49,241 bases of DNA, from assembly GCA_049700215.1 (NCBI GenBank), contig JBNAVT010000011.1, positions 1 to 49,241 on the forward strand, in the 5' to 3' direction. The notes beneath the pieces were generated by a model that was not told where the DNA came from, made no database searches, and saw only the letters and a program-made list of their open reading frames with translations. Origin of the DNA: Thermoproteota archaeon (GTDB taxonomy: Archaea; Thermoproteota; EX4484-205; JAAOZP01). Shown piece by piece: positions 5,601 to 25,614 of the stretch. Position 1 is the stretch's first letter, and each line of letters opens with the position of its first letter. The position numbers and the translations under genes were made by a program.

Positions 5601-8600
5601 TGCTGTTTATACCGAGAAAAACAGTAGGCACAATGAAAAATGGCGAGACAGACTCATAATTCGAATCTTCAAAGAAAAATCGAAGCCGAAGAAAACATAC
5701 TTCGTTAACGACTTCGAAGCCAGAGTTTGCCTAGGGGTTGAAAAATTCAATTACGAGAGAGAGTATGAATACGATATTTCAGTCGATCTGCCTCAAGAAA
5801 ACTTCGTTGGAGGAGCGGGCCTACTTGTTTTCCATAACACGCCCTTCTCCAACATAACTCTAGACCTTAAGGTTCCAGACTTCATGAGAGACGAGCCTGT
5901 TATAATAGGAGGGGAATTCATGGATGCTACCTATGGAGACTTTCAAGAAGAGATGGATGTTTTTAACAGGGCTTTAGCTGAGGTAATGCTAGAAGGCGAT
6001 GCTGTCGGAAGAGTATTCAGCGTCGATGGAGAATGTTTCTGTCCAGTTAGGAATTCAGGAAGAATGAAGCTGGTGAAAATCGGAGAATATATTGACGAAT
6101 GGATGAAAAAAAGAAAACCGATCTATGTCAAAGAAAACAAGTGTGAGGTCATAGATGTAAGCGATCTAAATATAGAAACCTTAGGGTTGAAAGATGGTAG
6201 AGTTGATTGGTGTAAAGTAAACTTTTTAGTACGTCATCCAACAGAAAGTCTTTTAAAAATATCTACAGTCGGTGGCTTTAGTGTTAAGGTTACTCCTTCT
6301 CATTCTATTATCGTGCTAAAAGAAGGTAGGATTCAAAGCTTTAGAGCTTCCATGTTACGGAAAGGAGATTATCTGCTTATGCCAAGATCCATACCTTCAG
6401 GGAAAAGGAAACGTATAGTAATTTCTTTAGCTGAAGAATTCATTAAGAGCGGGGCGAAGGGAATTTACATAAGAGATGTTTTTAAAGGAGGAAAACCCTA
6501 CAAAGAGATGAGAAAAGTCATATATAGAAGAAAATATGGTAAACGGCTTTATGAATACTCCTATGGTGTCTCTGCCTTCCCCCTGGAGAACATTGGTTTG
6601 GATTTAGATGAGTTTGACCTGTCGAAGGCAAAAATAAGTCTTAAAGGCTCTTCGATAAAATTGAAAAATCTTCTTCCTATGACGAAAGAATTAGCGGAGT
6701 TTTTGGGATACTACTGTGCCGAAGGTTCCGCTGAAAAAGGAGGGATAAGTTTAGGATTCAATCTAGAAAAAGAGAAAAAGATGGCTGCTCACGTATCCAA
6801 GTTAATAGGAAAGATCTTTGGAGATATCCCTATCCATCTTCGAGAGATTAAAGAAAGAAATCTAATCGAAGTGAGGATTCATTCAAGACTTCTGAGAAGA
6901 GTGATTACCGAAGTATTCAAGATCGGAACAGGTATTGAAAAAAGAGTTCCTCAGGTTATCTTTGAAGCACCACTGGAAATGAAAAAGAAATTCCTCTCTG
7001 CTTATTTCAAAGGCGATGCTTGGTTAACTGAAAACATCACTGTTGATTCCACTTCCCGAGAATTAATTTATGGTATCTCTACCCTTCTTAAACAGTTAAA
7101 AATATTCCATACTTTAACGGAGTATTACCGAGATGGAAGGCCTACATGGAGAATAAACATATGGAAGAATAGAAAATTGAAACCCAAAGATTCATACAGC
7201 ATTTCTAAGATCCCCATAAAGGAGAGTGGTTTAGAAGAGGTTGTTGAGAAAATCTTGGAAAAGGAACCTTACTATTTTGACTCTTTAGGCAGAAGGTATA
7301 GAAATACGATAAGTAGAATTTTCAAGAAATTCGGAATTTCTCACAGTAGCTCTACTTCTCTTCGAAAGGTTAGAAGGGTGCTTGGATATGCGAGAAAATT
7401 AAAAGTTGAAATCCCCTCTTCTTTAAAGGAGATTGAGAAAGGTGATCTTCTGTTTCTCAAAGTCAAAAGAGTCGAGAAAACTGTTCCTTCAAATGGCATG
7501 GTCTATGATTTCTCTACTGAAAGTGAAAACTTTATTGCCGATCAATTATTGGTTCATAATACGTTCCCTATCCCAACCATAAATATAACTAAGGATTTTA
7601 ATTGGAGCGATGAAACAGTGGGGAAAGTCCTTGAAACATCCGCCAAATACGGCATCCCGTATTTCGCGAACTTCATCAACTCCGACATGAATCCGGAGGA
7701 TGTTAGAAGCATGTGTCTTCATCCCGATGAGGAGATTTTAATCAAAAATAGCGGGAGTGTTATGAGGAAGAGCATGGGTGAGCTGGTTAAAGATTATGCA
7801 GGGCAATTTGATGAGGATGGGTGGGCAATTCCCCGCAAAGAGTTTAAAGTCCTGTCTCTTAACCCAGAGACTTGGAAAACAGAATGGGTGAAGGTTAAGA
7901 GGTTTTTGAGGGTGATTGACAATAAAATGGTAAGCATAGTTACTGAGGATGGGAAAGAGTTTAAAGTTTCAAGAAACCATGTAATTCCTGTAGTAACTCC
8001 GATAGGGATAGTCAACAAGCTGGCGAAAGATGTAAAGCCGGGCGATATAACGCTATCTCTAAGATCAGCTAACCATGATCTCAGCAACGCTTATGAGAAG
8101 ATTGGGAAATTCGTTTTGGATGAGAAACTAGCGGGATTACTTGGCTTTTTCACAGCAGATGGGAATTACTTGTTTGAGAATAGGAAGAACTCGAAGTTTT
8201 ACGGTTTGCCTAGGGGACTGCAGTTTACCTTCAGGGAAAATGATTCGTATTTGAAAAATAGAATTAAAAGGCTTATAAAGCATGTCTTAGGGTGTCCTGT
8301 TAAGGAAGAGAAGGATCCGCGATATGACACTGCTTATCTCTATATCTACTCATCTGACATCGCTAGAATCTTTTATAATGCTGGATTCAGAAAATACGGA
8401 AGACTGCCTCAGGTAATATTCAACTCTCCACCTAGCGTTATAAGATCTTTTCTCAAATATTTCTTTTCAGGAGACGGGTACAGAAAGAATGGAGAGATAC
8501 ACATTAATGACAAAGAGTTGTCAAGAGATTTAACAATACTTTTCTCCATGATAGGAGTTCCTGTATGTTACAAGGATAAGAAAAACAGCCAGAGGATTTA

Positions 8601-9918
8601 CATTCAGCATAAGAAGTCAAAAATAAACTCACTCGGCTTCTTAGCTACGCCAACGCTGTATGAAAGAGTCCCAGGGTTGATGGTGAGATCCACCTACGCA
8701 GTGCCCGGCTTAAGCAGAAAAAGAATGGTTGGAATAGAAACTCTGTCTAAGTATTATGCGCATACGGGGGAAAGCAAGAAGTTTCTCAGCGGAGACCTAA
8801 TGTTTGTGAGGATTAAGGAGTGTAGGCTGACAAGTCTTGAGAGAGGTCAGGAGTTTTTCGACATAGAGCTTGAGAAGAACCATTTATTCGTTCACTCTCT
8901 CGGAAACATTACTCATAACTGTTGCCATCTGAGGCTCGACAAGAGAGAGTTGAAGAAGAGGGGTGGAGGCCTCTTCGGAGCAAACCCGCTAACAGGAAGT
9001 ATAGGCGTCGTCACGATAAACATGCCTAGAATAGGCTTCCTGTCTAAGAGCGAGGGCGAGTTCTTCGCCAGGCTCGACAGAATGATGGTTCTCGCGAAAG
9101 ACGTTCTGGAGATCAAGAGGAAATGGCTTGAAAAATTCACTGAGGCAGGCCTATACCCATACTCCAGGTTTTACCTGAGGCATATTAAGGAGGCTTTCGG
9201 CCACCACTGGAAAAACCATTTCAGCACAATCGGCTTAATCGGCATGAACGAGGCCTGCTTAAATTTCCTGGGATGCACTATCGGCGACCCCGAGGGCTTA
9301 AGCTTCTCGATTAAAGTCTTAGACTTCATGCGGAAGAGGCTGCAGGACTTCCAGGAGGAAACCGGGAATATATATAATCTTGAAGCAACCCCGGCAGAGG
9401 GGACTTCACACAGGCTTGCGAGAATAGATAAGAAAACTTACCTCGGCATCATTGTTGCGAACGAGGAGGAGTTTAAGAAGGGTGCTGCACCATACTACAC
9501 GAACTCAACCCACCTTCCCGTATACTACACGGACGACCTCTGGGACTACCTCAGGCTTCAGGATCCTCTTCAAACAAGGTACACGGGCGGGACGGTTGTT
9601 CACGTGTGGCTTGGGGAGAGCAACCCGCCTGTTGAATCCGTTGCAGCCTTAGTGAAGAAAATCTGTGAAAACTTTAAGCTGCCCTACTTCACGCTTACAC
9701 CCACGTTCAGCATCTGCCCTGAAGACGGATACCTAGCCGGGGAGCAACAAACCTGTCCAAAATGCGGGAGGACCGCCGAGGTATACTCGAGGGTTGTTGG
9801 CTATTTAAGACCCATAGACAATTGGAACGAAGGAAAGCGCGAGGAGTTTAAGCAGAGGAAGACTTTCGACAAGGCCATTACCAGGAAGCTCGGTATTTCG
9901 ATAGCTAGTGATGCTTAA
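2626..9918 (+). CDS. nrdD: Anaerobic (class III) ribonucleoside-triphosphate reductase with N-terminal ATP cone, interrupted by four inteins; spliced protein 714 aa
   Basis: ATP cone IVKRDGRIVDFDKSKI; GDFHIHNL; SMCC; NLEATPAEG; YYTNS; glycyl radical motif YSRVVGYL; GAGGAGG RBS before TTG. Confidence 0.97.
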   Translation: MPQADSGGQALDRIVKRDGRIVDFDKSKITEAIWKAIKSVGGQDRALAERLSNQVVERLERQLKPGEIPHVEQVQDLVEKVLVENNLYNVAKAYILYRALHAQIREFVDSYLENKSWLVKENANTTYSLQALNFHISSQVISQYWLHRIFNKGRTEIREAHLNGDFHIHNLGILGPYCFDDQTRVLTKDGFKFFKDVTLQDEVATVNLKTGYLEYQHPTDKQVFEYSGPLFCFESRSLSLRVTPEHRLLVRERNDGEWKFVNPTNFKRRSEFLKQVKWRGKNSKFFQIPIVEGGNRLRHLEKIPIEVFLKFMGWYLAEGDAWGHDGKDRDSPSYIISIGQRNKKNRREIASLIKRLGFSPNLSDKDHIQFSSKELYSYLKQFGKSGEKFVPQFIKDLDPEKIKVFLFSLFKGDGTIENGELRRFSTKSKKLAEDVIECLLKIGKSGTLRWDGRRFIVSVQTEQLTPVFNKRPKVVQYRGKVYDLTVPNGTLIVERNGKVVASGNCVGWDLRDLLTTGFRGVRGKVSAKPAKHFRVALGHVVNFVFTLQGEAAGAQAFSSFDTYLAPFIRYDNLDFKSVKQALQEFMFNMNIPTRVGFQSLCWDEPIVIKERGKVKVVEIGKLVDREFEKHSYRVIEKHPQSYALENHDDYQVLSFNPDGKAVWARVKAFVRHRVPRNSEFVRIRTNRGEARVSKAHSLFGFSKFNGKFNPVPKSAEDVKIADDYRRLNEENHFIALKSLENQGRKEEIDLVEIIDELPSLQKNVFVKINPTHTLRRIRQRVVLEEQSLIPFHKEFGLKDRGVWESWLKKKSIRYDIWRKYGDLNQKVEFKLKNSDVWYTRFLNGKLLENFVKLCAWYVSGGHTAISTPLYISQSPSENARSIIRLLKALNALGQVARNKGYSRKGRKTKTVLKITGKGLLAEIVSRTCGYLSFNKVVPWFIFDLSPKYQKIFIETILKGDGAEYRNYWDYSTTSRKLSAGLCLLLSQNKFRFAVYTEKNSRHNEKWRDRLIIRIFKEKSKPKKTYFVNDFEARVCLGVEKFNYEREYEYDISVDLPQENFVGGAGLLVFHNTPFSNITLDLKVPDFMRDEPVIIGGEFMDATYGDFQEEMDVFNRALAEVMLEGDAVGRVFSVDGECFCPVRNSGRMKLVKIGEYIDEWMKKRKPIYVKENKCEVIDVSDLNIETLGLKDGRVDWCKVNFLVRHPTESLLKISTVGGFSVKVTPSHSIIVLKEGRIQSFRASMLRKGDYLLMPRSIPSGKRKRIVISLAEEFIKSGAKGIYIRDVFKGGKPYKEMRKVIYRRKYGKRLYEYSYGVSAFPLENIGLDLDEFDLSKAKISLKGSSIKLKNLLPMTKELAEFLGYYCAEGSAEKGGISLGFNLEKEKKMAAHVSKLIGKIFGDIPIHLREIKERNLIEVRIHSRLLRRVITEVFKIGTGIEKRVPQVIFEAPLEMKKKFLSAYFKGDAWLTENITVDSTSRELIYGISTLLKQLKIFHTLTEYYRDGRPTWRINIWKNRKLKPKDSYSISKIPIKESGLEEVVEKILEKEPYYFDSLGRRYRNTISRIFKKFGISHSSSTSLRKVRRVLGYARKLKVEIPSSLKEIEKGDLLFLKVKRVEKTVPSNGMVYDFSTESENFIADQLLVHNTFPIPTINITKDFNWSDETVGKVLETSAKYGIPYFANFINSDMNPEDVRSMCLHPDEEILIKNSGSVMRKSMGELVKDYAGQFDEDGWAIPRKEFKVLSLNPETWKTEWVKVKRFLRVIDNKMVSIVTEDGKEFKVSRNHVIPVVTPIGIVNKLAKDVKPGDITLSLRSANHDLSNAYEKIGKFVLDEKLAGLLGFFTADGNYLFENRKNSKFYGLPRGLQFTFRENDSYLKNRIKRLIKHVLGCPVKEEKDPRYDTAYLYIYSSDIARIFYNAGFRKYGRLPQVIFNSPPSVIRSFLKYFFSGDGYRKNGEIHINDKELSRDLTILFSMIGVPVCYKDKKNSQRIYIQHKKSKINSLGFLATPTLYERVPGLMVRSTYAVPGLSRKRMVGIETLSKYYAHTGESKKFLSGDLMFVRIKECRLTSLERGQEFFDIELEKNHLFVHSLGNITHNCCHLRLDKRELKKRGGGLFGANPLTGSIGVVTINMPRIGFLSKSEGEFFARLDRMMVLAKDVLEIKRKWLEKFTEAGLYPYSRFYLRHIKEAFGHHWKNHFSTIGLIGMNEACLNFLGCTIGDPEGLSFSIKVLDFMRKRLQDFQEETGNIYNLEATPAEGTSHRLARIDKKTYLGIIVANEEEFKKGAAPYYTNSTHLPVYYTDDLWDYLRLQDPLQTRYTGGTVVHVWLGESNPPVESVAALVKKICENFKLPYFTLTPTFSICPEDGYLAGEQQTCPKCGRTAEVYSRVVGYLRPIDNWNEGKREEFKQRKTFDKAITRKLGISIASDA
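3157..4137 (+). mobile_element. Intein 1 with LAGLIDADG endonuclease (327 aa)
   Basis: LGPY|CFDDQTRVLTKDG...VYDLTV...ASGN|C; motifs FMGWYLAEGD and FLFSLFKGDG; AT-richer than the exteins. Confidence 0.93.
4420..5838 (+). mobile_element. Intein 2 with partly degenerate LAGLIDADG endonuclease (473 aa)
   Basis: RVGFQ|SLCWDEPIV...VSKAH...EYDISV...VFHN|TPF; motifs LCAWYVSGG and FIETILKGDG. Confidence 0.93.
6019..7560 (+). mobile_element. Intein 3 with LAGLIDADG endonuclease (514 aa)
   Basis: GRVF|SVDGEC...VTPSH...VYDFST...LVHN|TFPIPT; motifs FLGYYCAEGS and FLSAYFKGDA. Confidence 0.93.
7714..8919 (+). mobile_element. Intein 4 with LAGLIDADG endonuclease (402 aa)
   Basis: DVRSM|CLHPDEEIL...VSRNH...FFDIEL...ITHN|CCHLR; motifs LLGFFTADGN and FLKYFFSGDG. 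Confidence 0.93.
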
Positions 9919-14706: not shown

Positions 14707-15570
14707 TTATTCCTTCAGGATTTTCTTCTTAATCATCTCGGCGACCGGCGCTGGATTAACATCCTTGTAGGGTTCTATACCCGCCTCCGTGATCCTGACT
14801 AGACAGCAGGTCATTGATGGTTTTGAAAGAGACTTCTCCAGAATCACGGCCTTAACCTCCTCGCCCAGGCTTGTCGACACCATTCTGAGAATGCTCTTGC
14901 TCATGTAAACGAGGTGCTGTCCCCCGATCACGTCGAACTCCCTGGCGCCGAAGCCGGCTTCAGGGTCTATCGAGAAACTCTTCTTATCTATGCTTTCCGC
15001 CATCTCCCTCCTAGACTTCTCTTGAAAACTCCTGGCGGCTTCACTTCTCCTCCAGCTCGTTATTAAGAGAAGCGACTCGTAGCCCGTCGCCATTCCCACC
15101 AGCGTGTTCACCTCCAGCGAGAGCTTTCCTTGAAGAACCCTCGCTGTGGAGGCTAGGTGTTGAGTAGGCGTGTTCAATAGCTGCGCGTGATAATGGGGAA
15201 CCAGTGAGTCGACGATCATAAGCACGGGGACCCAGTCGTTCTTATCCACCTCCCTAGGTATTGTCTCAACTATCGCCTTGTGCTGCTCTAGGAGGCGGCT
15301 GGCCTGGTACATCTTAATCCTGGACAGGGCTTCCTCCCTAATGCCTCTCTTCAAGCATATTGTTTTCAGCCGGTCGGGGTCCCACTCCTCTGTTTTAACG
15401 ACTATCACCACATCCCTCTCCCTACAGGTCTTTAAAGCCTCAGCCACCAGGGTTAGAGAAACCGTGGTCTTACCGGTTCCAGGGCTCCCGTAAACCAGGT
15501 TTGAAACACCTGTCGGAAGGCCTCCGGTCAGCTCGTCCAGCGGCTTAATGCCTGTGCTTAGCTTCCTCAT
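14707..15570 (-). CDS. RadB/RadA-paralog RecA-family ATPase lacking the RadA N-terminal domain
   Basis: LSTGIKPLDELTGG; Walker A GSPGTGKT; Walker B LMIVDS; IGG; C-terminal RITEAGIE. Confidence 0.88.
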   Translation of the reverse strand: MRKLSTGIKPLDELTGGLPTGVSNLVYGSPGTGKTTVSLTLVAEALKTCRERDVVIVVKTEEWDPDRLKTICLKRGIREEALSRIKMYQASRLLEQHKAIVETIPREVDKNDWVPVLMIVDSLVPHYHAQLLNTPTQHLASTARVLQGKLSLEVNTLVGMATGYESLLLITSWRRSEAARSFQEKSRREMAESIDKKSFSIDPEAGFGAREFDVIGGQHLVYMSKSILRMVSTSLGEEVKAVILEKSLSKPSMTCCLVRITEAGIEPYKDVNPAPVAEMIKKKILKE

Positions 15571-16796
15571 CCTAAACCGCCCTCCGTGAGAGCCAAGAGT
15601 TGCCTCCCACCCTCCTGAACCTGTTTTAGATAACCCTGCCTCATGAGCGCGGCGAGAGCCCTGAGGCCCTCCGCGCCCAACGAGGCCCTCACCTCTTCTA
15701 TGAACTCGTTTAAGCCCGCTTTTCCACCCAGCCCCCTTAGCTTCTCGATTATCCTGGCTCCAGCCTCGTAGAACTCGCCAAGCCCCTCTCTAAGCTCGTC
15801 GTCAGGGCTTAAGACTTTCATGACTGGCTTACGGGCCTCCCTCTCCTTCTCGCTAAGCGGCTTAAGAAGCATGTTCACAGGAGCCTCTATGAAGCCGTAA
15901 TCCCCATTCTTGACGAGGATAAGCATGGAGTAGTTTGAAGCATCCTTCTCGGGCGCGGGGCTCATCCTCCACGGGCTAGTGGCGTTGGAGGGAGGTGAGA
16001 AGACTACGGAGTCAAGGTTCTCCAAAACTCTTTCAGAAACCTGTGACAGGTTTTTCTCGGCGAACACTATTGAATACCCTTTCCTCTCCAGCTCTCCAGT
16101 TAAGGATTCTTCGACGAAGAGCCTGGCGTTGTCAAGCCTCCTGTTTCTCGGCCATATCAGGCTCGGGTAGCTTACGGTCACGAGCGTCCTATGCTTGGGT
16201 TCAAGCTGGGTAAGCTTCGCCAGCGTCAAAAGCGTTGCGAAAACCTTGTGCGAAGCCACTGTAAACCCTGAGAGGTTGAAGACCACGCCCGACTCCAAAA
16301 AGCCACTGAACTCGATTGCTTCCCTTCTGCCGAAAGCCTGCCTCAGGGTTCCGAAGGTGAATGGTTCGAGAGGCGTGTAGACGGATAACCCGCCCTCCGG
16401 GGTTTCGAAGTCAAGCGTTGAAGCGACCCCAGGTATCGTGGTTTCCGAAGACCTTGACACGTTATCCAAGAGCGCTTTCGCCACGATGCTCTTCATGTTG
16501 AAAGCCCCGAAGCAATAGTCAATTATCTCCACAACTGATTCAATATACTGCTCAACCTTTTCACGATTCGGAGGCTTAACCGGATTAATGCCGTGTTTTA
16601 CGACGTCATAGTGTCTCGTCGCACCCATCCTTGCCACGCAGCTGAACTCATCGTTTAAGTCGAGGAGGATGACCTTCGCATCCTCAAACACGTTTTGAAG
16701 CAGGTATACGAGAGCAGCCTTGAAATTGCTCCCGGCTACGCCTATTCTGACAGAAGCCTCCAGCAACCCTAGGCTCTGCTCAGACACAACCCTCAT
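15567..16796 (-). CDS. Inactivated HerA/VirB4-like P-loop protein with probable C-terminal winged helix
   Basis: HerA landmarks in order but degenerate: IGVAGSNFK (Walker A), ILLDLNDEF, GINP, VVFNLS, LVTVSYP (Walker B position), ELERKGYSIVFAEKNLSQVSERVLEN. Confidence 0.65.
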   Translation of the reverse strand: MRVVSEQSLGLLEASVRIGVAGSNFKAALVYLLQNVFEDAKVILLDLNDEFSCVARMGATRHYDVVKHGINPVKPPNREKVEQYIESVVEIIDYCFGAFNMKSIVAKALLDNVSRSSETTIPGVASTLDFETPEGGLSVYTPLEPFTFGTLRQAFGRREAIEFSGFLESGVVFNLSGFTVASHKVFATLLTLAKLTQLEPKHRTLVTVSYPSLIWPRNRRLDNARLFVEESLTGELERKGYSIVFAEKNLSQVSERVLENLDSVVFSPPSNATSPWRMSPAPEKDASNYSMLILVKNGDYGFIEAPVNMLLKPLSEKEREARKPVMKVLSPDDELREGLGEFYEAGARIIEKLRGLGGKAGLNEFIEEVRASLGAEGLRALAALMRQGYLKQVQEGGRQLLALTEGGLG

Positions 16797-18148
16797 TTCA
16801 GCACCCTCACCCCCTGTTGGGAGATCAGGACAGTCCTCCCCTCGAGTGCAAACCCTCTGGACGGTAGGAACGACTCGACAAGCTCCTTCTTGCAGCCCAT
16901 GAGGATGACGTTGTCCGCTTCAAAGCTCGAGCATACCCATGGCTTTCTAAGCGTAAGTATCTTGATCGGGGCGTTCACATCGATGTTTCGAGCAAGGCCT
17001 CTAAGCCAGATAGCGGCCACGGGTTTAGACAGTTTTCTCTTAAGCAAGGCTCCACCGGAGGGCTCGTCTGCGAAGACCACCTCCATCCCGTCGCGACGCC
17101 TATACGTTTCAACGGTCTTCTTAAGCAGCCTGTTTCCGATATGCTTGAAACCCTTCTCAACAAGCCTTCTTCTCACCTCGTCCCCAGTGTCCCCGGTTCT
17201 CCCCTTAACCTCCACTACGAGGCTCACCGAGTTCCTCCTTAACTGCGAGAGGCACAACTGGAGGGCAAGGCCCTCCGCATCCCTTTCCTCACCCACTATC
17301 AGCAGCCTCCCCGCGAGCCTGACAGGGTTTAGATCAAGCAGCTCGGGAACCGGTGTTACGTAGGGCTTCAGGGAGCGCCACTCTTCCAAAGCCTGCCGTA
17401 CACCCTGCCCGGAGCCTGCGCCCACCCTCCTCAGCATCTCGGTGAACCCCTCGAGAGCCCGGGGATTATCGGAAGCAACCTCAACCTTCATTAACTCTCT
17501 TGCGGGCTTAGCCTCACACAGTATGGCGACACCACTTGCCACGCTTTTTACCACAGCCTCTACGAGGGAGGACAGGCTTCCCTTGAGCTTAAGCGTCTGA
17601 CGATGCTCAAAGGACTCTATAAAGACGTCTTCAGGAAGCTTTAGGCTGAGCCTCGCCCTCCCCGTTAAGACTTTTAGTAAACCAGCTGGGCCAAACCCGT
17701 GAAGGAAAGCAACTCTAGGAGCTGGCGCAAGCGACAGGAGGATCGTGTGGTCTTCAGGCTTGGCAGGCTCTTCCTCGCATACTATCCTCAGCCTAATCCC
17801 AGTATTAGGGGGTTTGCGGACGGTTAGGACAACGTAGAGGAACGCTGCTACGAATCCTATTTGAGTATAGTACCCGGTGTGGAAGAGGGCTGAGAAGAAT
17901 GCTGCCATAAACCAGATGAGCAGGAAGGAGAATACCCTTTTAAAGACCCTTCTCAAACCGTTTTTAAAGTACTTTCTCGGAAACAACAGGGACATGGCTA
18001 AGAACCCCATCGCCGCCACAGCGATCAGGCTCGTCAAGCCTCCTAGGTCTAAGCCGAGGGAGCGCCCGATGGAGTCTAAAAGCCTCTTAACCAAGCTTCC
18101 CGACACGATTACTGCAGCGAGCTTCAGGACGGTCTTGATGATGCTCAT
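16793..18148 (-). CDS. Membrane protein (about 4 N-terminal TM) with a cytoplasmic domain resembling a degenerate P-loop fold
   Basis: Hydrophobic helices in aa 1-110; RLLIVGEERDAEGLALQLCL resembles an eroded Walker A strand-helix; stop overlaps the next start. Confidence 0.6.
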   Translation of the reverse strand: MSIIKTVLKLAAVIVSGSLVKRLLDSIGRSLGLDLGGLTSLIAVAAMGFLAMSLLFPRKYFKNGLRRVFKRVFSFLLIWFMAAFFSALFHTGYYTQIGFVAAFLYVVLTVRKPPNTGIRLRIVCEEEPAKPEDHTILLSLAPAPRVAFLHGFGPAGLLKVLTGRARLSLKLPEDVFIESFEHRQTLKLKGSLSSLVEAVVKSVASGVAILCEAKPARELMKVEVASDNPRALEGFTEMLRRVGAGSGQGVRQALEEWRSLKPYVTPVPELLDLNPVRLAGRLLIVGEERDAEGLALQLCLSQLRRNSVSLVVEVKGRTGDTGDEVRRRLVEKGFKHIGNRLLKKTVETYRRRDGMEVVFADEPSGGALLKRKLSKPVAAIWLRGLARNIDVNAPIKILTLRKPWVCSSFEADNVILMGCKKELVESFLPSRGFALEGRTVLISQQGVRVLK

Positions 18149-18194
18149 TCTCCACCACGTATAGAAGCATTGTTAAACATGTATTTATAGCATG

Positions 18195-18419
18195 AGGTAA
18201 GCGAAAATTTCCGCTTACCTTTGGTAAAAAATTTACCGACGGAAGGTTTATATCCGCCGTTCTCAGCCAGCCCAGGGAGCGGTGTTTGAGCTCGAATCCT
18301 CCGGGGAATCGGGAGGATAAAGGCCACTATGGGCACCGGGGGAGTGGTGATAACTCTATCAGGGTTTTCGCTTACGAGCAGGTAAACATCCGTTTACCCC
18401 AGGTAAACGTCCGCCTACC
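18195..18419. promoter_or_regulatory. Cluster of GGTAA...TTACC inverted repeats in the divergent promoter region
   Basis: AGGTAAGCG-N8-CGCTTACCT (18195-18220); GGTAAA-AAA-TTTACC (18223-18237); GGTAAAC-ATCC-GTTTACC (18381-18398); GGTAAAC-GTCC-GCCTACC (18402-18419); TTTATAT TATA at about 18247. Confidence 0.6.
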
Positions 18420-18494
18420 GTCTTCAGCGACTCTATAGGAACACTATCCGGGTTTCAAGCCTTCAGACGCCTTTCTCCTTAATCCTTAAAAGGG

Positions 18495-19055
18495 TTGACC
18501 GCTTTTCTAGAGACGTTGCCAAACGAGGGCAATAAGATAGAGCTGGAGCCGGAGAAGCTCAACATGATAAAGGCTGCAGCTGAGCCTCACAGGATGAGAA
18601 TACTGGTAAAACTTCTAGAGAAAGAGGACACCATCACATCACTATCCAAATCACTCAGCTATTCGAAACAGCTCTTAATCCACCACCTGGAGGTTCTTGA
18701 GAAAAACGGGCTCGTCTCTAAGAGAAGGGTTGGGAACGCTGAAGTCTACAGTATTAGTGAAGCCGCTAGGATTATAGTTTCAGAGGTCTTGCAAACGCAT
18801 TCAAGAATCGGGGAGGCTGAGGCCCCTGGGGTAACTGTGGGAGCTGAGACGCGCATGGTTAAAGCGCCGGGTCTAGGAAAGACAGCAACCATTTTGAAAC
18901 TCATACCCCTGATCACCGGAGTATCCGTAGCGCTCTTTGCATCCGTCAGAGGGATCCTGGAGGGACAGCCGCTTTGGATCCTCAGCGGAGCCCTGGTCGG
19001 CATCTGCCTCTACGCGATTGTTTCAAAGCTCATCCGGCATGCAGCATCCTCATAA
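18495..19055 (+). CDS. ArsR-family winged-helix regulator with two C-terminal TM helices
   Basis: [14 protein letters not shown]...ITSLSKSL...[15 protein letters not shown]...YSI; hydrophobic [16 protein letters not shown] and [16 protein letters not shown]. Confidence 0.85.
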
Positions 19056-19341
19056 CCACAGGTAATCAGGGGAGGAGCGGTTTAACACGTCTCTACGGGG
19101 GAGCGTGAAGCCGGTTTTGAAAAACCTGGGGAAACGCTCAGAGGGATAGGATAGCGCGCTAGTTGCCACTGGGCTAGCTCAATTTCCCCCTTCCCTTTCA
19201 AGCCGCCTCAAGCCGCGCGACATGTACCGGAATACCGGTGTTTAAACGCTTGGAACAAGAGGGTTTCTAAGCGTTTGAAGAAACTTTACGAGGATAATCA
19301 TGCTGGTCAACTTTTTAAACATGCTTACACTCTGGTAAACC

Positions 19342-20811
19342 ATGCGTCTACTCGACGGGAAGAACCTGGAGAAGATCGGCATTATTGCCAGCGACTCCAG
19401 CGAAACCAGGGCTAGGCTCCTCCTAGAGGAGGAGAAGGAGCTTAAGGTTAGGGCTGAGGAGATTGTCGTGGTCGAGACGCCCATGGGGGAGGTGCTTGGG
19501 GTTCTTAGAAGCGGGAGCGGGGTGAACGAGGCTCTTAGGGCTAACGCCTATAGGCCGAGCGTCGCGTACGCTAAGAGGGGTGGAGTGCCTTCAGGAGCCA
19601 GGGAGATATATACTTTCGAAATAATGGTGATAGGGGTTTTAACCGGGAACGGGGTTGAGCAGAACCGGATGATAATACCGCCTAGAAGCAGCGTCTACAT
19701 GTTTAAGCCGGGTGTTTCCAATCCTCTTGAACACGTTGCGAGGAGCAAGCCGGTTGTCTGGAACGCTTGCCTGGAGGGGCATGAGGATTGGAAAATACCC
19801 TTCGACAGTTCCTTCCTGCCATACCATATTGGCGTGTTCGGCGCAACGGGAAGCGGTAAGTCTTGGCTTACAAGGTTTGTCCTGGTTCCAGTTCTTCTGG
19901 AATCCGGCTTCAAGGTTCTGATTCTCGACTGGAGCGGCGAGGACTATGCTCCGCACTATAAGGATAAGGCGGTTCCAATATCTTCCCTCAGGCTTGACGA
20001 GGAGGCCGTCGTCAGGTACATTCTGGAGAAGGCGGAGCACTTCGGCTACACTGGTCAGGCTAGGGATTCAAACCCCGTCAGGGAGGCTCTGGAGGACTAC
20101 GTGTCGAGAAGATGGGAGGAGGTGCGCCAGAAATCCTCTGAAGAGATGTTCCTAGACATGAGGAACCACTTTGAATACTGGATTAGGCAGTCTCAAATGA
20201 GGGAGGACTATAAGAGGACTGCTCTGCGTCGACTCGAGTATGGCTTCAAGAAGCTTAGGCCGATTGACCTGGAGGCTGTCAGAGGCTCGTTAAGCATAGA
20301 GGATCTTGTTGAGGACTTGAGAAGAGAGGAGAAGGGGCTTAGGGTCGTCGACATGAGCCTAGTGGGGAGTGACGAGAAGCTTTCCTTCTTCAACTCTCTC
20401 GCAAGGTTCCTGGAGGAGGGTATGGAGCTTGGAGAGTCCCTCGGGCTTGCGCTTGTAATAGACGAGGGGCCGCAGTACGCTCCCTGGGAGCCCAAGGGGA
20501 TACAGTATGAGTCTACTGAACACATTAAGAACCTCTGCGCCCTAGGTAGGAAACACAGGCTCTGCATCGTCTTAATATCTCAAGGGATAGCTGGAGACAT
20601 AGGTATTAACGCTGCCGTTAGAAGAAACCTTAACACTCAGTTTTTCGGAGCCCTGCACCCGCTTGACATGCAGGAGGCTGACAACTGGCTTAAACCCTAC
20701 GGGATTCAGAGGGAGTATCTTCTCTCGCTGAAGCCTGGACAGTTCTACTTCGTCGGCAAGGCCAACCCGTCTCCAATACCCCTCTTAATATCTTTCAAGC
20801 CGGGGAGCTGA
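19342..20811 (+). CDS. herA: HerA-family helicase/translocase (HAS barrel plus ATPase)
   Basis: N-terminal beta barrel; HIGVFGATGSGKS; ILDWSGE; VIDEG; GRK; ISQ. Confidence 0.9.
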   Translation: MRLLDGKNLEKIGIIASDSSETRARLLLEEEKELKVRAEEIVVVETPMGEVLGVLRSGSGVNEALRANAYRPSVAYAKRGGVPSGAREIYTFEIMVIGVLTGNGVEQNRMIIPPRSSVYMFKPGVSNPLEHVARSKPVVWNACLEGHEDWKIPFDSSFLPYHIGVFGATGSGKSWLTRFVLVPVLLESGFKVLILDWSGEDYAPHYKDKAVPISSLRLDEEAVVRYILEKAEHFGYTGQARDSNPVREALEDYVSRRWEEVRQKSSEEMFLDMRNHFEYWIRQSQMREDYKRTALRRLEYGFKKLRPIDLEAVRGSLSIEDLVEDLRREEKGLRVVDMSLVGSDEKLSFFNSLARFLEEGMELGESLGLALVIDEGPQYAPWEPKGIQYESTEHIKNLCALGRKHRLCIVLISQGIAGDIGINAAVRRNLNTQFFGALHPLDMQEADNWLKPYGIQREYLLSLKPGQFYFVGKANPSPIPLLISFKPGS

Positions 20812-20815
20812 CGCC

Positions 20816-22003
20816 ATGGCTTCTGAAACATCCTGGAGCAAGCTTCCCATAGATCTTCAGGAGCAGTTCTACGAGAGGGCGGAGAGGGAGGCGCGTAGGC
20901 TTGCAACCGTTATACATGATTTAAGGTCTAGGATAGAGCTGGCCAGGGGCAGGTTGGAGCCCTACCTGCATCAGTTGGAGTTCAAGGCCTCCGGGGATTT
21001 TTCCATAGCTGCTGTCGACGGCTCCTTCTCGCCTAGGCCGGCTGAAACCATTGGGGCAAGGTTCTCAGTGTATTCCGCGGGGTTCATAATGGTGAAGGGT
21101 AGGAAAATAGTTAGGGAAGGCTTTTTCTCAGGCGGTGTGCGTCACGATCAGGCTCACACCAGGGAGTTTTCCAGCGCTGTCCTGCACGTTCAGGAATCTT
21201 ATTTAGAGAGGAGAGCCGCCTTGGAGGCCTTGAAAGAGAGCCCTGACCTACTGCTTCTAGACGGGAGCTTCTTAGGGTTCGCGTACTCTCTTTTCAGGGT
21301 GAGGAGAGTAATCCCGGTGCCCGAGTGGATAATCGACACGGCTAGAGAAACCCTGGAGGCAACGGAGAAGCTGCTGGACTCGGGGAAGTGTGCCGGAGTG
21401 GTTAAGAGGGGGAGGAGCAGGGCTATAGGAGGCTGGTTGTCAATAGAGGAGGACAGTAAAAACCCTTTGACAGACTGTTTGGATAAGCAGATTCTACACT
21501 ATCTTATGAAGCCTCCTGCAATCCTTAACTATAGGGAGCTTCTGAAGCAGCCTGGCCTCCAGAGGGTCTACAGCAGGGTTAGTGAGCTGCTTGAAAGAGG
21601 AGGGTTAAGCCCCAGGGATGCTTTGGAGCAGGCTATGGGGTGGGTTGTTGAAAGCCTAACTAAGGCTCTAGACGTGTCTAGTGAAACAGCCCTTAGGCTT
21701 GAATCCAGGATAAACAGGGTTCAAATAAAGGTTAGTGCTGAGAACCCTCCCTTCGAGCTTGAAGCACCGGTTGAATCAGAGGAGAAAGTGTTGAATGTTC
21801 TCTTCTCGAGCGTTGACAATTTTAACATGGCGACGGGTCTGCCTCTCGCGATAGATCTTGTTGATGAAAGCGTCACGCTGCCAGCTGAGTTTACGAGGGA
21901 GTTTGTAAGGGAGGTTGAAGCCAGGATCGTGGATTCTTACGACGGGGATCCTGAGGAAGTAAGAGGGTTTTTCACAGCTATGAATCCTCAGAAAGAACTC
22001 TAA
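20816..22003 (+). CDS. nurA: NurA-family nuclease
   Basis: IAAVDGS, LERRAA, LLLLDGS, GVVKR, GLPLAIDLVDE; 4 bp after herA. Confidence 0.9.
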   Translation: MASETSWSKLPIDLQEQFYERAEREARRLATVIHDLRSRIELARGRLEPYLHQLEFKASGDFSIAAVDGSFSPRPAETIGARFSVYSAGFIMVKGRKIVREGFFSGGVRHDQAHTREFSSAVLHVQESYLERRAALEALKESPDLLLLDGSFLGFAYSLFRVRRVIPVPEWIIDTARETLEATEKLLDSGKCAGVVKRGRSRAIGGWLSIEEDSKNPLTDCLDKQILHYLMKPPAILNYRELLKQPGLQRVYSRVSELLERGGLSPRDALEQAMGWVVESLTKALDVSSETALRLESRINRVQIKVSAENPPFELEAPVESEEKVLNVLFSSVDNFNMATGLPLAIDLVDESVTLPAEFTREFVREVEARIVDSYDGDPEEVRGFFTAMNPQKEL

Positions 22004-22021
22004 CCTTTTTATACTTGGTCG

Positions 22022-22987
22022 TTGGCTGTCTGCTTGTTGGAGTGGATTATTCTTGCGCATGGGGATTGCGATGGAGTCTGCTCAGCTTCAATAATTCTCT
22101 CCGCGAAGAGGAGTGCGAAAGTGGTTTTCACGAACCCTGCTGAGCTTCTGTCTGGGCTTAGGCTGATTGAAGCCGGGAACATAATCATAACGGATATAGC
22201 GATAACACCAGCGCATGCGGATGAAACAGTCTCGGAATTGAGGAGGTTAAGCTCCACAGGGGAAATCGTCTACTTGGATCACCATCCTCTTCCACCAGGA
22301 TTGGGGTTGAAAGATCTGCCTGCGAAGACTGTCGAAGCCAGGGGGGAGGCGTGTGCGTCTGAACTGGCATACGTGTGCTTCAAAGAGATTTTAGACCCGG
22401 AGATAAGCAGGATCGCCGTCTACGGTGCCATAGGGGACTATAGTGACAATACTCCCGGGATCAACGAGATTTTGAAGAACTGGGATAAGAGGGAGCTGTA
22501 CTTGGAAGCAGGCATTCTCATCGCCGCTCTTGAAGGAGTGAAGAAGAGGGATTTCGTTTTTAAGAGAAGCCTCGTCGAATACCTCTCTGAAAACAGGCTT
22601 CCAAGCGCTGATAGAAACCTTGTTGAGATTGCTCTACGAGAGTCTGAGAGGGATGAGGAGATGCGCCGCTTGGTGAAGAGCCTGGTTAAGACTCACGGGA
22701 GAGTGTCTTACGTCTTGAACGTGGAATGGTCGCTCGGGAAGGCTGCGACCTACGCCAGGGCTTACGGCAACACGATAGTCGGGGTTGCGGCTGAAGAACA
22801 GGGTGAGAACATTGATCTAAGCCTTAGGTCCGTGGGCTTAAGCGACCTACACAGGGTCGCTTCGGACGTCGCCGGGATGCTCGGGGGTATCGGCGGCGGA
22901 CACGCTAACGCGGCTGGGGCGAGGATTCCACGCGGGAAGCTCCTGGAATTCGTGGAGATGCTTGACGAAAGGCTCGGAGCCTCCTAG
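22022..22987 (+). CDS. DHH/DHHA1 phosphoesterase (RecJ/NrnA-like)
   Basis: HGDCDG, ITD, YLDHH, GAIGD, LSLRS, GGGHANAAG; true start may be the TTG at 22037. Confidence 0.9.
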   Translation: MAVCLLEWIILAHGDCDGVCSASIILSAKRSAKVVFTNPAELLSGLRLIEAGNIIITDIAITPAHADETVSELRRLSSTGEIVYLDHHPLPPGLGLKDLPAKTVEARGEACASELAYVCFKEILDPEISRIAVYGAIGDYSDNTPGINEILKNWDKRELYLEAGILIAALEGVKKRDFVFKRSLVEYLSENRLPSADRNLVEIALRESERDEEMRRLVKSLVKTHGRVSYVLNVEWSLGKAATYARAYGNTIVGVAAEEQGENIDLSLRSVGLSDLHRVASDVAGMLGGIGGGHANAAGARIPRGKLLEFVEMLDERLGAS

Positions 22988-23067: not shown

Positions 23068-25614
23068 ATGAACAGGACAGTGCTGCTCCCGGTTATGGTT
23101 GCACTGCTGGTTTACGCCGCCACCCCCTGGTTAACCGTTTACACTTCAGCCGGCGGGCCCCAGTCCACCAGGGTCTTCCACCCTTTAAAGGACGCTGTGG
23201 TCTACGAGGATGATCCTGACCGTAACTTCGGCTTAAACTGGGAAATAGGAGTCAATTACATGGAGGGTTTCCGAGACCGCTCCTTCATAATGTTCGATTT
23301 AAGCAGCATACCTCCAGGCTCCATCATTGTCTCAGCATTCCTAAACGTATACATGTATGCTCCCCCGGGTTTAAACAGGAGCCTAGCATGCTTCCAGGTT
23401 GCTGAAGGAGACTGGGGTGAGAACAGTATTACTTGGAGGAACCAGCCGGGTGCAAGCCTGTTCGTAACGTCTGTTTCAACAGGCGATAAGCCGAAGTGGC
23501 TTAAGCTAGACGTTAAGAGCTCCCTGGCTAGATTTGCCTCCGGAAGCCGCGCTGGCTACGAGCCCAACTTCGGCTGGATGCTGAGGGATTATGCTGAGGG
23601 CCAGGGCTCATCCAGCTACCCGTTCTGGATGTATTCCAAGGAACATGAGGATTCGAGCAAACACCCGTATCTTGAAGTCAAATACTCTCCTCCCCGTCTC
23701 GACCTGGTTTCCTCAGGGGACTCGATGCAGGCTGGAGGCTGGATTAGGATGAGGGTCTACAGGGAGACTGAGGCGGGTGAAAGGATTACGCGCGGCTCCC
23801 TCAGGGTTAGGCTGGATTCAAGCTCGAACTCGACGAGCAGAAGATTCTCCTTGACGCAGGGTGGCGACGCGATAACGGAGTTAACGATACGGGACGGAGC
23901 GACCTTCGCAGACTTCTACTATTACGAGGAGAAGGCTGGAGCATGGAGCATAAATGTTAAGGCGGTGGACTACCCTGATTACGTTGGCGATGCTGAAACC
24001 ATCATGGTGACGCCCGGCCCATTAGAAGGCTTCGAGTTTGAAGCAGTAGAGTCTCCGAAGCAGGTTGCGATGCCTTTCCAGATAACTATTGTTGCACGCG
24101 ACACTTACGGGAACGTTAAGACCGACTACACCGGGGTGAACACTCTTTCAGACACGACTGGCACGATCAGCCCGAATAAAACCGGTGTCTTCGTAAACGG
24201 GAAGTGGTCCGGCTCCGTAACCATAGGCAGGATAGGTAGAAACATAAGGATCATGACTACGGGCCTGGGTAAAACAGGTGAGAGCAATGTTTTCAACGTT
24301 TCAGCCGGCCCTCCTGCGAAGCTCGTGATCGAGCCCAGCACCTTCAAGATGGCGGCTGGAGTAGTTTTTTCACACCTAAGCTTGTCGCTGAGGGATGTTA
24401 AGGATTTTGAAGCGACTAACACTCTAAACGTGACCGTGAGCCTCTCAACATCCTCCCAGGAGGGGGAGTTCAGGCTCTTCGGGACGGCGATAAGCATAAC
24501 CAGCGTCACGATCCCCGCGGGCTCAAGCACCGTTAAAATAGACTATTACGACACTATGGTTGGAAACCATGCTTTAACAGCCTCCGCCCTGGGCTTCACG
24601 TCTAAAGCGAATGTCACCGTGCTTGTCGACACAGCGCCGCCGGTTACAGTAGTCATGGTTGGGGAGCCGAAGCACGAGGCCGACGGGACTATTTACGTAT
24701 CCGGTTCAACGCCCCTCGTCTTCTCGGCGGAGGATGATTTAAGCGGTGTTAAAAACATTTTTTACAGGGTTGACGAGAACACTTGGGTGGCTTACAATGC
24801 TGCTTTCAACCTTTCACCCCACCCTGAAGGCACGCGTGAAATAAGGTATTACAGCGTGGACAGGGCTGGCAACACTGGGGCTGAAGGGAAGCTCGGACTC
24901 TTCCTGGATAAGTCTCCCCCAAGCATTATGGATGCTTCCCCGTCTGGAAGATTCTTTTCAAGCTCTAAAACAGTCTTTATAATAGTTAAGGCGGCTGATT
25001 CATCGGGGGTCAGGGATGTTGAGCTCACTATGGACGGTGTTGCACACGGTCCAATGGTTAGAAACGGCGACAGGTTTATTAATACTGTGAGCCTGAGCGA
25101 GGGAAGCCACAGCTGGAGCATCAGGGTGTCTGACAACGTGAACAACTCGGAAGTCTACAGCTACTCGTTCACGCTTATCCTTGACACTAGGCCGCCGGTA
25201 GTCACGGGTCTCTCAGGACCCTCTAACCCTGTTTTCGGGGAGGCGGCGACAGTAGCCTGCACGGTTTTCGACGAGCCTTCAGGCGTTAGAGACGTCTACC
25301 TCTGCTACTCCACGGATAAGGGCTCCTCCTGGGTGAGGACGGTTATGAGTCTTCAAGAAGGCCTCTACAAGGGCTCAATACCTTCTCAATTCTTCTTCAC
25401 GGAGGTTCAATACTATGTCGAGGCTGTTGACAACGCTGGCAACAGGTTTCAGACCGGTGTCTCAACCTACACCGTAGGCATACCATTATGGCTCTACCTG
25501 CTGGCCTTATCCCTAGTGGCCTTAGCGGTAGCCGTATTCCTGCTCAGGAGGATTCTTGCGAGAAGGAGGCCTACACAGCTGACGTACACTTCCTCCGGGA
25601 CGGTGACGCAGTGA
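23068..25614 (+). CDS. Large cell-surface protein: signal peptide, DNRLRE-like domain, Ig-like repeats, C-terminal TM anchor
   Basis: DAVVYEDDPDRNFG...RSFIMFDLSSIP...ITWRNQP; repeated DxxPP...SGV...DxAGN units; terminal TM followed by RRILARRR. Confidence 0.82.
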   Translation: MNRTVLLPVMVALLVYAATPWLTVYTSAGGPQSTRVFHPLKDAVVYEDDPDRNFGLNWEIGVNYMEGFRDRSFIMFDLSSIPPGSIIVSAFLNVYMYAPPGLNRSLACFQVAEGDWGENSITWRNQPGASLFVTSVSTGDKPKWLKLDVKSSLARFASGSRAGYEPNFGWMLRDYAEGQGSSSYPFWMYSKEHEDSSKHPYLEVKYSPPRLDLVSSGDSMQAGGWIRMRVYRETEAGERITRGSLRVRLDSSSNSTSRRFSLTQGGDAITELTIRDGATFADFYYYEEKAGAWSINVKAVDYPDYVGDAETIMVTPGPLEGFEFEAVESPKQVAMPFQITIVARDTYGNVKTDYTGVNTLSDTTGTISPNKTGVFVNGKWSGSVTIGRIGRNIRIMTTGLGKTGESNVFNVSAGPPAKLVIEPSTFKMAAGVVFSHLSLSLRDVKDFEATNTLNVTVSLSTSSQEGEFRLFGTAISITSVTIPAGSSTVKIDYYDTMVGNHALTASALGFTSKANVTVLVDTAPPVTVVMVGEPKHEADGTIYVSGSTPLVFSAEDDLSGVKNIFYRVDENTWVAYNAAFNLSPHPEGTREIRYYSVDRAGNTGAEGKLGLFLDKSPPSIMDASPSGRFFSSSKTVFIIVKAADSSGVRDVELTMDGVAHGPMVRNGDRFINTVSLSEGSHSWSIRVSDNVNNSEVYSYSFTLILDTRPPVVTGLSGPSNPVFGEAATVACTVFDEPSGVRDVYLCYSTDKGSSWVRTVMSLQEGLYKGSIPSQFFFTEVQYYVEAVDNAGNRFQTGVSTYTVGIPLWLYLLALSLVALAVAVFLLRRILARRRPTQLTYTSSGTVTQ

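Follow-up and report, generated by a model that had tools for sequence, protein, structure and literature searches.

Two gene clusters lying back to back in a 49,241-nt contig of a Thermoproteota archaeon are best explained as independent modules, each inherited vertically, that a rearrangement brought together in one subclade of a Brockarchaeota-like genus; we give this reading a probability of about 0.7. The contig, analyzed over its full length and called the window below, is C11 of a 2.09-Mb genome (G000; 85 contigs, 94.6% complete), and close homologs carry the source labels Candidatus Brockarchaeota or Thermoproteota. Arm 1 (14707-18148, minus strand) is a triad of genes encoding a membrane protein (TM451), a degenerate ATPase (U409) and a RadB-like paralog of RadA, and would form a platform like that of the Ced DNA importer. 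Arm 2 (19342-22987) encodes HerA, NurA and a DHH enzyme, and would act as a DNA end-resection module. An original prediction, made from the letters of the window, had taken these six genes and an ArsR gene between them for a single membrane-linked DNA-processing system. All seven open reading frames (ORFs) are present (Table 1), and the ORF list and domain searches uphold nearly all of the gene calls.

The divergent adjacency seen in one genome was misleading, and synteny across species resolved the question of whether the arms belong together. Synteny was assessed by tblastn over 20 fetched loci; the window's genus (g1) is represented by 16 genomes other than the window's own. The triad is intact in all 16. 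The two arms are adjacent in 8 of the 17 genus genomes, the window and seven others, and U409 is at least 82% identical in all seven. Among the nine more divergent genomes, eight have their HerA ortholog (81-93% identical) on a contig other than that of the triad, and none was found in the ninth, which is 77% complete; the neighbor of TM451 is a glycosyltransferase gene at the two such loci that are annotated. HerA-NurA-DHH is intact on separate contigs in genomes G018, G017 and G010, followed in the last two by the gene for an 850-amino-acid (aa) surface protein. The nrdD gene is found at 2626-9918 in the window. Because nrdD directly precedes herA in G018, the triad block appears to have been inserted between these two genes.

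The distribution of the modules is also discordant. Our class sample comprised 26 genomes in genera g1 to g6, including the window's own, and was supplemented by 375 other Thermoproteota (401 genomes in all). The triad is present in 23 of the 25 class genomes besides the window's (g1 16/16, g2 2/2, g5 3/3, g6 2/2, g3 0/1 and g4 0/1), and the HerA ortholog in 15/16 genomes of g1, 3/3 of g5, 1/1 of g4 and none of g2 (0/2) or g6 (0/2). Genera g2 and g6 therefore have the triad without the HerA ortholog and g4 has HerA-NurA without the triad, so that five of the nine genomes outside g1 carry one module only. Co-occurrence of all seven genes in one neighborhood fails, an outcome that the original prediction had itself listed first among those that would speak against it.

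U409 has the fold of the FtsK-HerA superfamily and has lost its catalytic motifs, which bears out the earlier description of a dead HerA/VirB4-like protein. Its AlphaFold model (predicted local distance difference test, pLDDT, 85; built on 20 homologs) gave 111 Foldseek matches at E<=1e-3, led by HerA (4d2i, E 2e-7) and VirB4 (4ag5, TMq 0.56, TMt 0.60), with further HerA, VirB4 and TrwB entries below these two. The superfamily is also marked by a Walker A motif (GxxxxGK[ST]) and an acidic Walker B motif. No Walker A was found in U409 by pattern. In the hhalign alignment with a CedD-like ATPase of the same genome, the P-loop of U409 carries a three-residue deletion (GS---N versus GSTGSGKT), and SYPS stands at the Walker B position where the CedD-like ATPase has EEAH. 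This degeneracy is common to all four genera that carry the gene.

The nearest named relative of U409 is CedD, an ATPase of the Ced DNA importer of Sulfolobales. The family profile aligned with the same-genome CedD-like ATPase at a probability of 91.7% in hhalign (E 7.7e-7, 238 columns) and with the adjacent HerA at 1.3%, a value that shows no relation. The hetero-ring of dead ATPases with the neighboring HerA that had been proposed finds no support in these two values or in the separability of the arms. U409 itself had no match in Pfam, NCBIfam or PADLOC, while the sole NCBIfam match of its g2 homolog is CedD (NF053655, E 2e-12), at 46.6 bits versus a cut-off of 600. The analogy to Ced drawn earlier was thus apt. 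Against 1.84 billion proteins the U409 profile found 13 representatives at E<=1e-10, and those of its weaker matches that were checked are mostly DUF87/HerA-like P-loop ATPases. In the model, the last ~80 residues form helices followed by a beta-hairpin, an end that may be winged-helix-like. Fused forms of U409 were sought among longer proteins and none was found, which is weak evidence; a 711-aa open frame in G024, considered as a fusion of U409 with the RadB-like protein, was ruled out by a stop codon between the two genes. Plasmid and phage records gave no match to U409.

The third gene of the triad encodes an ATPase of the RecA family with intact motifs, as had been predicted. Its best score is to RadB (TIGR02237, 77.1 bits over residues 14-140), below the cut-off of 172.4 bits for that family. 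It also matches the solved RadB structure 2cvf (E 1e-13), the Rad51 family of Pfam (24.9 bits, cut-off 22), RadA, KaiC and, weakly, ArlH (E 0.006). Walker A (GSPGTGKT), the catalytic Glu and Walker B all lie in the RecA core, and K34 and T35 of Walker A, E61, D121 of Walker B and the GGQH motif are invariant in 15 orthologs. Like RadA paralogs of the RadB/aRadC type (2cvf, TIGR02237), the protein has a RecA core without the N-terminal helix-hairpin-helix domain, Walker A and B motifs and a GGQH-type loop. It differs from them in its ~100 extra C-terminal residues and in that its gene invariably follows those for a membrane protein and a HerA-like pseudo-ATPase. The ratio of nonsynonymous to synonymous substitution rates (dN/dS) is 0.05-0.09 for this gene, the lowest of the triad, 0.17-0.21 for U409 and 0.27-0.36 for TM451, and all three genes are therefore kept by selection. 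Complex prediction for U409 with the RadB-like protein scored 0.00 in both runs, which counts neither for nor against binding. Both junctions of the triad are 4-nt ATGA overlaps (16793-16796 between TM451 and U409, 15567-15570 between U409 and the RadB-like gene), in agreement with the overlapping stop and start codons noted originally.

TM451 had been described as a protein with four transmembrane segments and an eroded P-loop-like domain, and only the first part of this description stood. The AlphaFold model, of mediocre quality (pLDDT 69), places four N-terminal helices at residues 2-30, 38-55, 63-88 and 94-109; a hydropathy scan found three of them and one weak segment. No remnant of a P-loop emerged, as TM451 matched nothing in Pfam, NCBIfam or PADLOC and nothing in the PDB by Foldseek at E<=1e-3. 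A wide VIA search was dominated by membrane helices and yielded weak leads only. Comparisons by hhalign of the TM451 family with the g2 membrane ATPase, U409, a g5 protein and a CedD-like ATPase were all null, as was that of the g5/g6 gene-1 set with the g2 membrane protein; the membrane part of TM451 is weakly alike in the g5/g6 counterparts (hhalign 70.7%). In g2 the position of TM451 is taken by a membrane protein of 670 aa whose P-loop ATPase domain (GGKSSGKT) is intact and resembles those of HerA, TrwB and CedD; the protein lies above the Pfam cut-offs for TrwB_AAD_bind and DUF87. Its sole NCBIfam match is again CedD, at 22.6 bits versus 600.

The triad, together with a nearby gene for a membrane ArsR protein, is a lineage-specific operon. 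Strong matches to the U409 profile were found in 24 of the 26 class genomes, the window's own included, and none among the 375 other Thermoproteota, in which there were six weak ones; five of these six were checked and proved to be four DUF87-type HerA proteins and one protein without a Pfam family. In a separate observation, a locus of another Thermoproteota family (L091, G175:C67, 8138-10772) encodes a 448-aa protein with weak similarity to the U409 profile and no Pfam family, ~340 nt upstream of a canonical radA.

A comparison with Ced is instructive. According to Wu et al. (PMC11868833), CedD has three parts, namely a membrane domain, an N-terminal domain that is unknown and an ATPase resembling HerA, VirB4 and CedB. 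They describe CedB and CedD as paralogs, paired HerA-clade proteins with membrane anchors, and report that DNA import in Saccharolobus requires both. The triad likewise includes two proteins encoded together, one of which has an N-terminal membrane domain and an unknown middle domain, and both sets of genes are chromosomal and conserved in their lineages. The differences are that U409 lacks a membrane segment and Walker A and B, that TM451 has no demonstrable ATPase fold, that the third gene encodes a RadA paralog and that the conserved triad cluster contains no CedA/CedA1-like gene. Neither U409 nor TM451 matches the CedD model NF053655, and both g2 homologs fall far below its cut-off. Because of these differences the triad is not a member of the Ced family, though it plausibly works in a similar way. 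Another cluster of the same genome (C1:10332-15622; L074:2333-7623) has genes for an ATPase of the FlaI/VirB11 type (626 aa), two small unknown proteins and a CedD-like ATPase of 601 aa (171.7 bits versus CedD), and possibly represents a DNA-transfer system of the Ced/Ted type. In the literature, which was covered in part, neither an operon of a membrane protein, a dead HerA and a RadA paralog nor an archaeal HerA-NurA-DHH operon was described, and the combination of a membrane protein, a dead Ced-like ATPase and a RadA-type paralog looks undescribed.

In arm 2, Pfam matches and catalytic motifs confirmed the intact HerA, NurA and DHH enzyme of the original prediction. HerA has GATGSGKS and VIDEG motifs and scores 60.9 bits against DUF87 (cut-off 23.2); NurA begins after a gap of 4 nt and scores 32.9 bits (cut-off 21), so that 19342-22003 holds a HerA with intact motifs beside a NurA-domain protein. 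The DHH protein scores 46.1 bits against DHHA1 (cut-off 25.9), 27.6 bits against DHH (cut-off 28.1) and 70.5 bits against RecJ_archaeal (cut-off 360), and has the DHH and GGGH motifs. Selection constrains HerA very strongly (dN/dS 0.04-0.06). Its orthologs occur in 93 of the 401 sampled Thermoproteota, 73 of them outside the window's class at 36-50% identity. In all 10 of the distant loci fetched, a NurA ortholog follows HerA and no match to the DHH protein was found; by tblastn, DHH adjoins NurA only in g1. We read the DHH/DHHA1 enzyme as a genus-level addition to HerA-NurA.

The window pair is not the only one in its genome, which has three NurA-HerA pairs (in the window and on contigs C5 and C59). 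A canonical nurA-herA-mre11-rad50 operon, for which a search elsewhere in the genome had been suggested, is located on C5 (6950-13042), and its HerA matches the solved Thermococcus and Sulfolobus HerA at E 6.5e-29 and 3.2e-23. The window HerA matched no solved structure by sequence at E<=1e-3. The pair resembles the HerA-NurA complex of Sulfolobus and Thermococcus (PDB 4d2i, 9x1l) in passing the Pfam cut-offs, keeping the catalytic motifs and being adjacent, and differs from it in being unlinked to mre11 and rad50 and in being followed, in this genus, by a DHH/DHHA1 gene. From these sequence features, arm 2 is most likely a second, stand-alone end-resection module. In Deinococcus, RecJ, a DHH protein, is reported to bind HerA (PMC4663267). 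A DHH-family protein likewise accompanies HerA-NurA in the window, and an interaction here might be supposed by analogy; the window protein, however, is a 321-aa DHH/DHHA1 core far below the RecJ_archaeal cut-off. The third pair of the genome (C59:1747-6308; L073) consists of a HerA of 596 aa and a NurA-domain protein of 600 aa and adjoins a genuine radA gene, truncated where the contig ends.

These results are most simply accommodated by two separate mechanisms. For the triad, the most likely role is that of a Ced-like scaffold, anchored in the membrane, on which a RadA paralog is positioned. TM451 would be the membrane anchor. U409 would descend from a CedD-like ring ATPase of the HerA clade that lost nucleotide hydrolysis and has a winged-helix-like tail; tethered by TM451, it would form a platform that binds DNA at the membrane. 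The RadA paralog, on which purifying selection acts most strongly, is the only intact NTPase of the triad, and the platform would position it at the membrane as a recombination mediator or motor. In the other module, the HerA ring would feed DNA ends to the NurA nuclease, and the DHH/DHHA1 enzyme would degrade the single-stranded DNA or nanoRNA products. It is conceivable, though we consider it rather unlikely, that the triad is a new archaeal membrane apparatus for DNA handling derived from a Ced-like ATPase pair. In such an apparatus the ring ATPases would be inert and serve as scaffolds, the RadA paralog would perform the sole nucleotide-driven step, DNA entry or tethering at the membrane would be coupled directly to recombination, and the membrane ArsR would be a sensor and regulator acting through a TATA-proximal palindrome.

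Several points weigh against the view of two independent modules, one of them a Ced-like platform. The genomes that lack one module are 57-93% complete, and some absences may therefore be assembly gaps. Because both modules coexist in most g1 genomes, they may be functionally linked in trans. At one locus (L028), only HerA was matched by tblastn downstream of ArsR, and not NurA or DHH. The sequences argue only weakly for homology of gene 1 across genera, and in the membrane part only; the cytoplasmic domains of TM451 have no assigned fold and no significant similarity to the g2 ATPase. The proposed association of the triad proteins is suggested by conserved gene order and start/stop overlap alone. 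No VirB6/CedA-like channel gene or pilin gene was found within the conserved triad, and no genome-wide search with a CedA model was made.

The triad might instead be a housekeeping device for chromosome handling or signaling, either an FtsK-like membrane-tethered remnant acting in segregation or division or a membrane sensor with a RecA/KaiC-like switch. ArlH, which acts on ArlI/ArlJ, is the model for such a switch. The triad occurs once per genome in nearly all members of the class and diverges vertically, the arrangement of four membrane helices, linker and degenerate motor recalls that of FtsK, and the best Pfam match of the g2 form is TrwB/FtsK-like. The scores of the RadB-like protein against KaiC and ArlH and the lack of pilin or channel genes nearby would also fit. 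However, the nearest named relatives are CedD and RadB/RadA rather than FtsK or ArlH, the ArlH match is marginal, and the locus has no link to division genes. We therefore regard this explanation as improbable, though it is the strongest of the competitors.

Far less can be said for the single seven-gene system, in which dead ATPases would scaffold the active HerA or form a hetero-ring with it and feed NurA, DHH and RadB. Its genes lie side by side in divergent orientation in the window and seven close relatives, every product plausibly acts on DNA, and both modules occur in most g1 genomes. However, the adjacency is confined to one subclade, the modules lie on different contigs in eight genus genomes, g2, g4 and g6 each have one module without the other, the U409 profile is related to the CedD-like ATPase and not to the window HerA, and HerA-NurA stands alone in all 10 distant loci. 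The model is already largely refuted by synteny, and we rejected it as very unlikely. HerA with a nuclease is also a common layout of defense systems (such as Sir2-HerA and DUF4297-HerA), but anti-mobile-element defense by the locus or either arm is the least likely reading and a defense island was rejected: the matches to PADLOC-DB 2.0 are weak and at the level of the P-loop only (HerA to mad8 at 2e-13 and to HerA models down to 8e-10, the RadB-like protein to mad8 at 5e-6), U409, TM451, NurA and DHH have none, U409 is absent from the plasmid and phage records, each module occurs as a single copy, keeps its synteny and shows strong purifying selection across species, and the G+C content of the locus is in line with the surrounding genome.

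The intergenic region contains the palindromes that had been reported between the arms, GTAAGCG-N8-CGCTTAC at 18197-18218 and a tandem GGTAAAC-N4-GTTTACC at 18381-18419. A TATA-like box, CTATAAATA, lies ~40 nt upstream of the TM451 start and is abutted by the first palindrome. G018, whose HerA arm lies elsewhere, retains this palindrome in the form GCAAGCG...CGCTTGC, which assigns it to the promoter of the triad itself. The palindrome and flanking TATA-like boxes form a promoter-like cassette (~100-240 bp; 18182-18413 in the window) that is repeated in the genome, on contig C20 at ~2300 (2321), upstream of a 401-aa gene with a signal-peptide-like start, and on C83 at 670-901 (685), where it is 91% identical over 237 bp. 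Neither Rfam nor tRNA scans detected anything in the region. A 63-aa ORF (s63; 18145-18336, minus strand), considered as a fourth triad gene, was rejected as non-coding: its dN/dS was 1.6, 1.1 and 0.5 in three comparisons, and a fourth comparison gave no match. It overlaps the TM451 start and the promoter and contains the promoter palindrome.

The ArsR protein described in the original prediction as membrane-anchored has an HTH_5 domain and two C-terminal hydrophobic segments. Of the 16 other genus genomes, 15 have its gene no more than ~2.1 kb from the triad, with two arrangements represented, and across the genus the linkage is to the triad and not to HerA. Since ArsR stays near the triad in both arrangements, these data hint at a putative regulation of the triad by ArsR.

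Table 1. Genes and regulatory region of the two arms in the window.
Feature	Position	Strand	Basis
TM451, triad gene 1	16793..18148	-	ORF, AlphaFold model; four N-terminal membrane helices and two cytoplasmic alpha/beta domains
U409, triad gene 2, pseudo-ATPase, 409 aa	15567..16796	-	HerA/VirB4 fold, nearest CedD clade
RadB-like RadA paralog, triad gene 3, 287 aa	14707..15570	-	RecA-fold ATPase, motifs intact
Promoter/operator region of triad and ArsR gene	18149..18494	.	TATA-like box, palindromes, non-coding s63 ORF
ArsR/SmtB-type winged-helix regulator	18495..19055	+	HTH_5 domain, two C-terminal hydrophobic (membrane) segments
HerA-family ATPase, divergent stand-alone HerA-NurA subfamily	19342..20811	+	DUF87, Walker A and B intact
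NurA-domain nuclease, HerA partner	20816..22003	+	Pfam NurA family
Small DHH/DHHA1 phosphoesterase, RecJ-like core, 321 aa	22022..22987	+	DHHA1 Pfam, DHH and GGGH motifs

Other features of the window deserve mention. Its nrdD gene (plus strand) encodes a 2430-aa anaerobic ribonucleotide reductase with inteins (two Intein_splicing and two LAGLIDADG matches and a Hint fragment) and coincides with a stretch of low G+C content (0.378 at 6-8 kb); the G018 ortholog has 711 aa. NurA is dimorphic, being 63% identical (dS 2.1-2.7) to the proteins of G025, G016, G011 and G023 and ~90% identical to those of G012 and G022 (loci L023-L029). The adjacent HerA is 92-96% identical in all these relatives. A dimorphic NurA beside a uniform HerA suggests that nurA was replaced by recombination. 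The ~850-aa surface-type protein encoded at 23068-25614 (plus strand) has CBM96/DNRLRE, OmpL47-type barrel and Ig-like domains, and its gene comes after DHH, or after NurA in g4, wherever the HerA block lies (L067, L068, L069).

The stand-alone HerA-NurA module, distributed across 93 of 401 sampled Thermoproteota, without a solved relative and found in a genome that also has the canonical operon, indicates that the archaeal toolkit for end resection may exceed the textbook four-gene operon. If the proposed role of the triad is true, a DNA-translocation module of the Ced/VirB4 type can be retained by selection after the loss of catalysis, serving a recombinase paralog as its platform at the membrane. 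In an uncultured lineage of hot springs, DNA transfer and recombination would then be linked in a way that can be tested.

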